Shown: positions 20,063 through 20,979 of the stretch, piece by piece
Position numbering within the stretch: position 1 is the first letter of the stretch
Layout: each line of letters starts with the position of its first letter
NCBI RefSeq assembly: GCF_057098645.1
Contig: NZ_CM169472.1
DNA: 64,000 nucleotides
Direction: 5' to 3' (one strand)
The notes under the pieces: generated by a model
The model's input: only the letters and a program-made list of their open reading frames with translations
What the model was told of the DNA's origin: nothing
Database searches by the model: none
Made by a program: the position numbers and the translations under genes

Positions 20063-20380
20063 ATGGACTGGTATCTGAAAGTACTAAAAAATTATGTCGG
20101 TTTCCGGGGTCGTGCGCGGCGCAAAGAGTACTGGATGTTTATTCTGGTCAACATCATCTTTACGTTCGTGCTGGGGCTGCTGGATAAAATGTTAGGCTGG
20201 CAACGCGCTGGTGGCGAAGGCATCCTGACGACAATCTACGGTATTCTGGTGTTTTTACCGTGGTGGGCACTGCTATTCTTAATCCCGTTTATCGGCTGGC
20301 TTATTATCATCGTCTTTAACTGCCAGGCGGGTACGCCAGGCGAAAACCGCTTTGGACCTGATCCAAAACTGGAACCTTAA
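20063..20380 (+). CDS. yhaH: YhaH, DUF805 inner membrane protein
   Basis: ORF 20042..20380 trimmed to MDWYLKVLKNYVGF.. Confidence 0.8.
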   Translation: MDWYLKVLKNYVGFRGRARRKEYWMFILVNIIFTFVLGLLDKMLGWQRAGGEGILTTIYGILVFLPWWALLFLIPFIGWLIIIVFNCQAGTPGENRFGPDPKLEP

Positions 20381-20393
20381 AACAAATCTGCTC

Positions 20394-20420
20394 GCCGGAT
20401 GTCTGACTCATCCGGCTTTT
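20394..20420 (+). terminator. Rho-independent terminator after yhaH
   Basis: gccggatg tctgactc atccggc followed by tttt. Confidence 0.65.
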
Positions 20421-20622
20421 ATCATCATGTTGATGAATGAATAATTTACTAATGTTTATTTAAAATATTTCAATGTCGTTATATAAATTACCTATAAAAA
20501 AATAACCATGTATTTATCTTAAATATCAAAACCTTTATAACATCCAAAAAAGAAAGATACGAATAGCATTTACACAATACCCGGAATAGACTTTCGTCAC
20601 TTTTAATTAAAGGGATGTTTTT

Positions 20623-20979
20623 ATGCAGTGGTATTTATCCGTATTAAAAAATTATGTTGGTTTCTCTGGTCGCGCACGTCGTAAAGAGTACTGGATGTTT
20701 ACTCTGATTAACGCCATCGTCGGCGCTATTATCAATGTCATTCAATTGATTTTAGGTCTGGAGCTTCCATATCTGTCTATGCTTTATTTGCTGGCAACCT
20801 TCCTTCCCGTCCTTGCGCTTGCTATCCGTCGCTTACACGATACCGACCGTTCAGGTGCCTGGGCCTTGCTCTTTTTTGTTCCGTTTATTGGTTGGCTCGT
20901 GCTTCTGGTTTTTTTCTGCACAGAAGGTACTTCTGGCAGCAATCGTTACGGAAACGATCCGAAGTTTGGTTCAAATTAA
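20623..20979 (+). CDS. yhaI: YhaI, DUF805 inner membrane protein (paralogue of yhaH)
   Basis: 118-aa ORF; shares the MxWYLxVLKNYVGFxGRARRKEYWMF N-terminus with YhaH. Confidence 0.8.
   Translation: MQWYLSVLKNYVGFSGRARRKEYWMFTLINAIVGAIINVIQLILGLELPYLSMLYLLATFLPVLALAIRRLHDTDRSGAWALLFFVPFIGWLVLLVFFCTEGTSGSNRYGNDPKFGSN

Follow-up and report, generated by a model that had tools for sequence, protein, structure and literature searches.

A recurrent 48-bp in-frame deletion in yhaH, one of two tandem DUF805 genes, as a candidate natural phage-escape allele in an O145:H28-like Escherichia coli lineage

Several phages rely on inner-membrane host factors; lambda, for instance, needs ManYZ, HK97 needs PtsG, and N4 needs NfrB. 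The present analysis concerns the membrane-protein genes yhaH and yhaI in a 64,000-nucleotide stretch of contig NZ_CM169472.1 (assembly GCF_057098645.1), hereafter the window, and especially a deletion in its yhaH. The locus is that of yhaH (b3103) and yhaI (b3104) in Escherichia coli K-12, with the same neighbors (yqjF-yqjG-yhaH-yhaI-yhaJ-yhaK) and a nearly identical spacer between the two genes. However, YhaH has 121 residues in K-12 and in 99.9% of complete genomes, whereas that of the window has 105 residues and lacks the RRLHD loop. The closest published counterpart of this allele is found in R188, a mutant of E. coli TK001 obtained by selection with the Stephanstirmvirinae phage ΦWec188 (Kaneko et al., J Virol 2025, PMC12548472), a study in which NfrB also appears. 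R188 carries a yhaH deletion at 3405873-3405920, corresponding to 48 bp, as its only entry in the table of frameshift and stop-codon mutations. It is infected by neither ΦWec188 nor ΦWec190, and plasmid-borne wild-type yhaH restores sensitivity. The lipopolysaccharide (LPS) gel pattern of R188 is unaltered, and the mutants were picked for adsorption below 20% (PMC12548472).

The complete genome closest to the window is that of E. coli O145:H28 strain RM12761 (99.97% identity across ~62 kb). The open reading frame (ORF) of yhaH, a DUF805 inner-membrane protein gene by ORF, Pfam, and alignment to RM12761 and K-12, occupies 20063..20380 on the plus strand (ATG at 20063, stop at 20378-20380; yhaH in the RefSeq annotation). 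Its product is identical to WP_000384142.1, and the reference gene has 366 bp. Aligned to RM12761 and K-12, the window shows a 48-bp in-frame gap after base 20258. In intact yhaH, CGTGGTGGGCA stands first between ...TAC and GTTCAG... and again between ...CGCTCGG and CTGCTA..., a perfect direct repeat of 11 bp whose two copies start 48 bp apart and encode the two WWA tripeptides of YhaH. The window gene has lost one copy together with the 37 bp between the copies, and the surviving copy at 20259..20269 (plus strand) forms the deletion junction, located by the alignment and by a junction 39-mer. The deletion allele itself is thus present in the window, and the residues missing from YhaH are VQFRRLHDTDRSAWWA, including the invariant RRLHD loop. 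Slipped mispairing between the 11-bp repeats would generate a 48-bp in-frame loss of this kind.

The 39-mer over the junction occurs in 4 of 5426 complete genomes, namely DEC5D O55:H7, F11 (two records), and VG35A2, all annotated with WP_000384142.1, and the exact 105-residue protein is encoded on 193 contigs in a larger protein collection. Over ~6.2 kb, the carriers form at least five haplotype groups, 45-160 single-nucleotide polymorphisms (SNPs) apart, and intact-yhaH relatives of particular carriers lie as close as 1 SNP (RM12761) and 6 SNPs (K-12). Since the carriers are distant from each other and have near-identical intact relatives, the deletion has arisen repeatedly, and its recurrence on unrelated haplotypes shows a mutational hot spot. 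The reciprocal product also exists, a 137-residue E. coli YhaH with VQFRRLHDTDRSAWWA twice from duplication of the 48-bp unit (P0039, 19 contigs); the duplication junction, tested with the 'A' variant of the repeat only, has no match in complete genomes. Furthermore, a 106-residue version is also known for the yhaI-less type (P0002), and other in-frame deletions affect the same region around the loop after the second transmembrane segment (TM2) (P0058, P0063, and P0040).

The published masses of YhaH are 12236.536 for the mutant and 14262.756 for the wild type (PMC12548472). The masses computed here are 12254.54 for the window protein and 14280.76 for the 121-residue protein, each approximately 18.007 above the published value. 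Such an offset corresponds closely to one water and would follow if the published values are sums of residue masses. Because a deletion in another register would change the composition, the laboratory allele and the window allele would encode the same protein. The noteworthy content of the locus is the yhaH allele, a recurrent repeat-mediated in-frame loss of an invariant loop that matches a published phage-resistance mutation by length and masses.

The RRLHD motif is situated in the TM2-TM3 loop; YhaI contains it at residues 69–73, and the window YhaH has lost it. Its R, R, H, and D do not vary among 93 homologues from Proteobacteria, Firmicutes, Actinobacteria, Bacteroidetes, and others, a set that is biased because one of the six patterns used to find loci held the motif. 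In an unbiased check with the motif-less 105-residue protein as query, RR[LIMV]HD is present in 115 of the 120 best relatives. The five relatives lacking it comprise four Escherichia/Shigella alleles with deletions or a frameshift and one metagenome sequence with a 10-residue deletion (P0063). The YhaH orthologues of Enterobacteriaceae are otherwise well conserved, with 121-122 residues and the motif. The second family mark, the signature F.GRARR.EYW before TM1, is found in both YhaH and YhaI, and R17, R20, E22, and W24 are invariant in the 93 homologues. Both proteins pass the Pfam PF05656 (DUF805) profile (YhaI 111.3 bits, the 105-residue YhaH 74 bits; cut-off 25.7), in agreement with the earlier note, which had placed both in this family. 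The window yhaH thus reads as a damaged DUF805 member rather than a non-member.

By hydropathy, YhaI and intact YhaH each contain three uncharged runs of 18-29 residues, whereas the deletion allele contains two, of 18 and 41 residues, the longer one being TM2 and TM3 joined into a single uncharged stretch. The positive charges are distributed as seven at the N-terminus, two in loop 1, three in the RRLHD loop, and two in the tail. From this distribution and the positive-inside rule, both Arg-rich motifs, including the RRLHD loop, are inferred to be cytoplasmic. The AlphaFold2 model of YhaI (predicted local distance difference test, pLDDT, 91.7; predicted template modelling score, pTM, 0.82) consists of three long helices and an N-terminal amphipathic helix. 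For the 105-residue YhaH, the model has a mean pLDDT of 84.6 and a pTM of 0.55, and its second helix is just 11 residues long. The 105-residue protein is most likely non-functional.

Taken together, the locus is best read, with a probability of roughly 0.8, as an old DUF805 pair in which repeat slippage has deleted part of yhaH, leaving a likely non-functional protein and a predicted resistance to YhaH-dependent phages. Loss of the YhaH loop would render the source strain, whose yhaI stays intact, resistant to such phages; the prediction is made because the same deletion abolished infection by ΦWec188 and ΦWec190 in TK001. As a best guess, YhaH would act at the inner membrane, in either irreversible adsorption or the entry of DNA, because the protein exposes almost no periplasmic surface and the mutant LPS is unchanged. 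Phage pressure may help to keep the allele, which on its sequence is a modestly interesting candidate for natural phage escape. The function of the family had been described beforehand as unknown. This is partly outdated by the requirement of ΦWec188 and ΦWec190 for YhaH (PMC12548472), although the need of these phages is still the sole functional handle.

Several points weigh against this reading. What identifies the window allele with that of R188 is the shared length of 48 bp and the agreement in mass rather than a published sequence. The paper itself writes p.P66_A82del, which is 17 residues in its numbering, and calls the mutation a 'frame shift' (PMC12548472). Moreover, the known YhaH-dependent phages also require R1-core LPS (PMC12695924), and such phages may be unable to infect this O145:H28-like strain anyway. 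The allele is present in just 0.07% of complete genomes, and the hot spot plus drift would suffice to explain it without selection. Finally, the AlphaFold2 contrast sets the deleted YhaH against YhaI, two different proteins. Neither the flanking repeat nor natural carriers are mentioned in PMC12548472 or PMC12695924, and the recurrence of the deletion also goes unremarked in PMC12548472.

The strongest competing explanation, with a chance somewhat short of even, regards the deletion as a neutral slippage product in a dispensable gene, drifting in a few clones and playing no phage role in nature. The very low frequency (4/5426 genomes) fits this well, as does the lack of a strong published phenotype for yhaH and yhaI, which are listed as uncharacterised (PMC11551758). 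Other lesions are present in the same lineage (the yqjG frameshift and IS2 in higB), and yhaI is not called intact in two of six carrier loci (DEC5D and L009), as relaxed constraint would predict. However, an identical allele was picked by phage selection in the laboratory and conferred complete resistance (PMC12548472). Drift in a dispensable gene also sits poorly with the conservation of the orthologues in length and motif, and with the several other in-frame deletions that fall in the TM2-loop region.

A more far-reaching interpretation, tentative and rather doubtful, extends the phage-escape reading to the whole locus. Here the WWA codons would make yhaH a mutational weak point, lineages would repeatedly delete or duplicate the RRLHD loop and escape phages, and the DUF805 genes upstream of yhaJ would be the site of an arms race over the inner-membrane factors that phages need for entry. 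The variation cited for it comprises one to four DUF805 copies across Enterobacteriaceae, the presence or absence of yhaI, the yhaI mosaic in TM2-TM3, and DUF805 'moron' genes in Shiga toxin (Stx) prophages. With regard to the last, PHROGs family phrog_12855 ('moron' membrane protein) matches both YhaH and YhaI. The Stx-converting phages 75/02 (KF766125.2 / NC_029120.1, 16310-16693) and POCJ13 (KJ603229.1 / NC_025434.1) encode a hypothetical protein 32% identical to full-length YhaH. Prophage DUF805 proteins might conceivably interfere with YhaH-dependent phages. None of the PADLOC defense-system models matches YhaH, deleted YhaH, or YhaI. A conserved operon partner, sought as a clue to function, did not emerge: among 80 DUF805 loci from many phyla no neighbor family is shared by more than 4 of 78.

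The two paralogues are related far beyond chance (window alleles, BLASTP E = 8e-36). Intact YhaH and YhaI are identical at 66 of 117 positions (56%), and the window allele at 47% with a 16-residue gap. Three blocks are conserved between the intact proteins: the N-terminus (residues 1–27), the RRLHDTDRS motif, and TM3 with the tail. The earlier note had described nearly identical first 25 residues followed by divergence. The first part agrees with the alignment, in which 22 of the 25 residues are identical and the quoted pattern fits; the second does not, since the C-terminal third is also conserved (LLF.IPFIGWL...G.NR.G.DPK) and the gap in the middle, which includes RRLHDTDRS, partly reflects the absence of 48 bp (16 codons) from the window yhaH. 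Low overall identity, with the shared N-terminus as a mere domain signature, had been named as the finding that would undo the duplication. Overall identity is 56% between the intact proteins, and the shared N-terminus does not single out this particular pair. Within the first 30 residues of YhaI, 27 match a Streptomyces homologue and 24 match YhaH; thus, the shared N-terminus is the DUF805 family signature. Gene conversion was considered for the N-terminal identity and rejected: identical codons at shared residues amount to 12/19 in the N-terminal block versus 4/14 and 8/20 elsewhere, a sample too small to carry the idea, and the block is a family signature across phyla.

In a neighbor-joining tree (120-residue alignment), the YhaH-type clade has a bootstrap of 100 and the YhaI-type clade one of 65, with an inner node at 82; the node joining the two clades has a bootstrap of 50 and takes in an Exiguobacterium sequence. 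E. coli, Citrobacter amalonaticus, C. rodentium, and Superficieibacter share the order yhaH, yhaI, convergent yhaJ. Because the clades are separate and the order is kept across genera, the paralogy is old. The old tandem duplication proposed beforehand is supported in this respect, each paralogue having orthologues in other genera in the same order.

The pair is not fixed, and its copy number is fluid, with yhaI dispensable. At the yhaJ locus, E. marmotae, Salmonella, Klebsiella, and Enterobacter contain yhaH only, C. amalonaticus and C. rodentium contain a yhaH-type gene followed by a yhaI-type gene, and Intestinirhabdus alba contains a yhaI-type gene only. Superficieibacter sp. contains four tandem copies directly upstream of yhaJ-yhaK (L104:1269-3331); the second is of YhaH type and the third of YhaI type, whereas the first and fourth have diverged strongly. 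Of the 80 loci from other phyla, 7 likewise contain DUF805 genes in tandem. In E. coli, yhaI with its spacer (20423..20979) is present in 4378 of 5426 complete genomes and missing from about 1048 (~19%). The yhaI-less junction, with a short hairpin directly after yhaH, is homologous to that of E. marmotae. The lone DUF805 gene of yhaI-less E. coli was considered as a yhaH::yhaI hybrid, and its sequence is plain yhaH.

This patchy distribution also invites another origin for yhaI, namely that horizontal transfer placed the gene and the AT-rich DNA upstream of it beside a resident yhaH, with no duplication in place. The base composition is compatible with such an arrival (spacer 23.5-27.7% GC, yhaI 44%, window 50%), and so is the absence of yhaI and spacer from about one-fifth of E. 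coli, where the junction resembles that of the sister species E. marmotae. Salmonella, Klebsiella, and Enterobacter likewise contain yhaH alone, YhaI is 62% identical to an Exiguobacterium protein versus 56% to YhaH, and the two E. coli yhaI classes are told apart by a mosaic segment of 173 nt that contains 54 differences. However, the same order recurs in two Citrobacter species and Superficieibacter, Intestinirhabdus retains only the yhaI type at this position, and the YhaI-type proteins form their own enterobacterial clade, all of which fits an old pair with repeated losses. Transfer is judged unlikely, and homologous recombination through the flanking genes would reconcile it with the old pair.

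It is very unlikely that the 105-residue YhaH retains its function, with the loop dispensable, or has gained a new one. The frame and the other two conserved blocks are kept, the Pfam threshold is still passed, the mean pLDDT stays at 84.6, and the allele persists in clones. Nevertheless, four residues invariant across phyla are gone, no lineage of orthologues lacks the motif, the TM2 of the model is predicted to be too short to cross the membrane, and with respect to phage infection the published mutant behaves as recessive and loss-of-function (PMC12548472).

The deletion is accompanied by a second lesion just upstream, in yqjG (18792..19780; glutathionyl-hydroquinone reductase), which contains a +2 bp (AA) frameshift at 19338-19339. 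The frameshift occurs in no complete E. coli genome (best identity 98.3% among 5419 matching genomes), and the truncated 224-residue YqjG has exact matches on 16 contigs of the same lineage. The full window haplotype, combining the deleted yhaH and the yqjG frameshift, is found on 16 contigs, and GCA_015672775.1 differs from it by one mismatch over 6675 b. Because this haplotype recurs in independent assemblies, it represents a real clonal lineage and not an artefact. An assembly or sequencing error behind the 48-bp gap is hardly credible, as nothing specific speaks for one beyond the few homopolymer indels that separate the window from its closest complete genome, a repeat-bounded 48-bp loss is unlike a homopolymer error, and the allele recurs in independent assemblies of the haplotype, in the complete genomes of three other strains, and on 193 contigs. 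Elsewhere in the window, an IS2 element (IS3 family, OrfA/OrfB; 1331 bp, 654..1984) interrupts the toxin gene higB of the higBA pair, an insertion that RM12761 lacks. In addition, garP (41169..42503) and kbaZ (46509..47789) are intact in the window and recorded as pseudogenes (frameshift, internal stop) in RM12761; thus, the window lineage is not simply a more decayed copy of RM12761.

The gene pair itself is already known, annotated, and ordinary E. coli content. It sits between yqjG and the convergent LysR regulator gene yhaJ (21030..21926, minus strand), a conserved neighbor that identifies the locus in all Enterobacteriaceae examined. The yhaI ORF spans 20623..20979 on the plus strand (ATG at 20623, stop at 20977-20979; yhaI by ORF, Pfam, and RefSeq annotation) and encodes an intact DUF805 protein of 118 residues, the K-12-type allele, whose product WP_001198807.1 is the same protein as in K-12. 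The ends and names that the earlier note had given for both ORFs are exact and agree with RefSeq. Upstream of yhaH, a REP-type repeat lies at 19829..19865 (minus strand), represented by a weak Rfam match to naRNA4 (25 bits, under the gathering score); yhaH is said to be 'surrounded by repeat sites' (PMC11551758). An RNA element in the yhaH-yhaI spacer was sought with Rfam and rejected, this REP-like match being the only one returned.

The spacer between the genes, the presumed promoter region of yhaI, spans 20381..20622 (plus strand), that is 242 bp at 27.7% GC, falling to 23.5% past the terminator, against 50% for the window. An intrinsic-terminator-like hairpin with a T run follows yhaH at 20394..20416 (plus strand) and is kept in K-12 and VG35A2. 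Both features accord with the very AT-rich spacer of about 240 bp and the yhaH terminator noted previously. A further hairpin terminator, found by hairpin scan and assigned to neither strand, lies between the convergent yhaI and yhaJ at 20990..21007. The spacer is nearly invariant in E. coli and can be aligned with that of C. amalonaticus only beside the ribosome-binding site. Its A run at 20490..20496 has one base more than in RM12761, K-12, and VG35A2. Promoter prediction, suggested beforehand as a check on independent promoters, gave little: a consensus scan of the spacer found no sigma-70 promoter at threshold (3.5 expected in shuffles), and a relaxed scan found only weak candidates, with 8/12 matches, 134-178 bp upstream of yhaI.

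A candidate CpxR box (ATAAACATTAGTAAA, 20445..20459, minus strand), with one mismatch to GTAAA-N5-GTAAA, is offered as a lead only; the window has such one-mismatch sites at a rate of roughly one per 6 kb, and conservation of this one does not extend to C. amalonaticus. Overproduction of CpxR raises yhaI 3.2-fold on arrays and 40.3-fold by quantitative PCR, and yhaH 1.9-fold (PMC2731931); in Salmonella, yhaH is repressed by SdsR (PMC5137417). The intervening terminator and the differing published regulation make it plausible that yhaH and yhaI are separate transcription units.

Two yhaI allele classes of similar frequency exist in E. coli, with 2091 genomes at ≥95% identity to the window and 2213 at 80-90%. 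Compared with a second-class yhaI (L007:3378-3734), 54 of 56 differences fall in a 173-nt central segment (window 20758..20930, yhaI nt 136-308) from TM2 to TM3, producing 18 amino-acid changes. The spacer and both ends of yhaI are almost the same across the classes, and a recombinant form exists (P0171); the central segment has the look of a mosaic that was either imported or maintained for a long time. Two of the six deleted-yhaH loci shown also have a damaged yhaI, which contains an internal stop in DEC5D and has gained a 7-bp insertion in L009. Frameshifted YhaI of 130-139 residues is encoded on hundreds of contigs, with the frame change at or near the T7 tract at 20909..20915 (P0202 from T6). 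The tract was considered as a second hypermutable site and rejected: T6 occurs in two complete RefSeq genomes and T8 in none. Since these lengths are nearly absent from complete genomes, most frameshifted YhaI are probably homopolymer assembly errors.

In practical terms, a natural O145:H28-like lineage carries a deletion that matches the one by which E. coli became resistant, in the laboratory, to one group of phages considered for therapy. Such a deletion would arise easily and repeatedly through the 11-bp repeat, which bears on genome-based host-range prediction and on the speed of resistance. An invariant loop with a clear loss phenotype would also provide a genetic handle on DUF805, a family spread across bacterial phyla. 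If the arms-race interpretation were true, it would supply the first biological role for this widespread family.

Compared with contingency loci and other cases of slippage between short direct repeats, yhaH shares an 11-bp perfect repeat at 48-bp spacing, a deletion with its reciprocal duplication, and recurrence. However, phase-variable loci switch reversibly, whereas the yhaH deletion loses one repeat with the intervening 37 bp and leaves no template; thus, it cannot revert, and only the duplication allele could. Among inner-membrane host factors, ManYZ, PtsG, and NfrB resemble YhaH in that each is a non-essential inner-membrane protein whose loss blocks particular phages and leaves LPS unchanged. 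The likeness to lambda is incomplete, as pel (ManYZ) mutants adsorb normally, whereas R188 was picked for adsorption below 20%. R188 and the window allele differ in origin, the former being a laboratory mutant of an ST345 mouse isolate under ΦWec188 selection and the latter a natural allele of an O145:H28-like lineage known from sequence alone. Nevertheless, the deletion of each is in-frame, spans 48 bp, and lies in the same part of yhaH.

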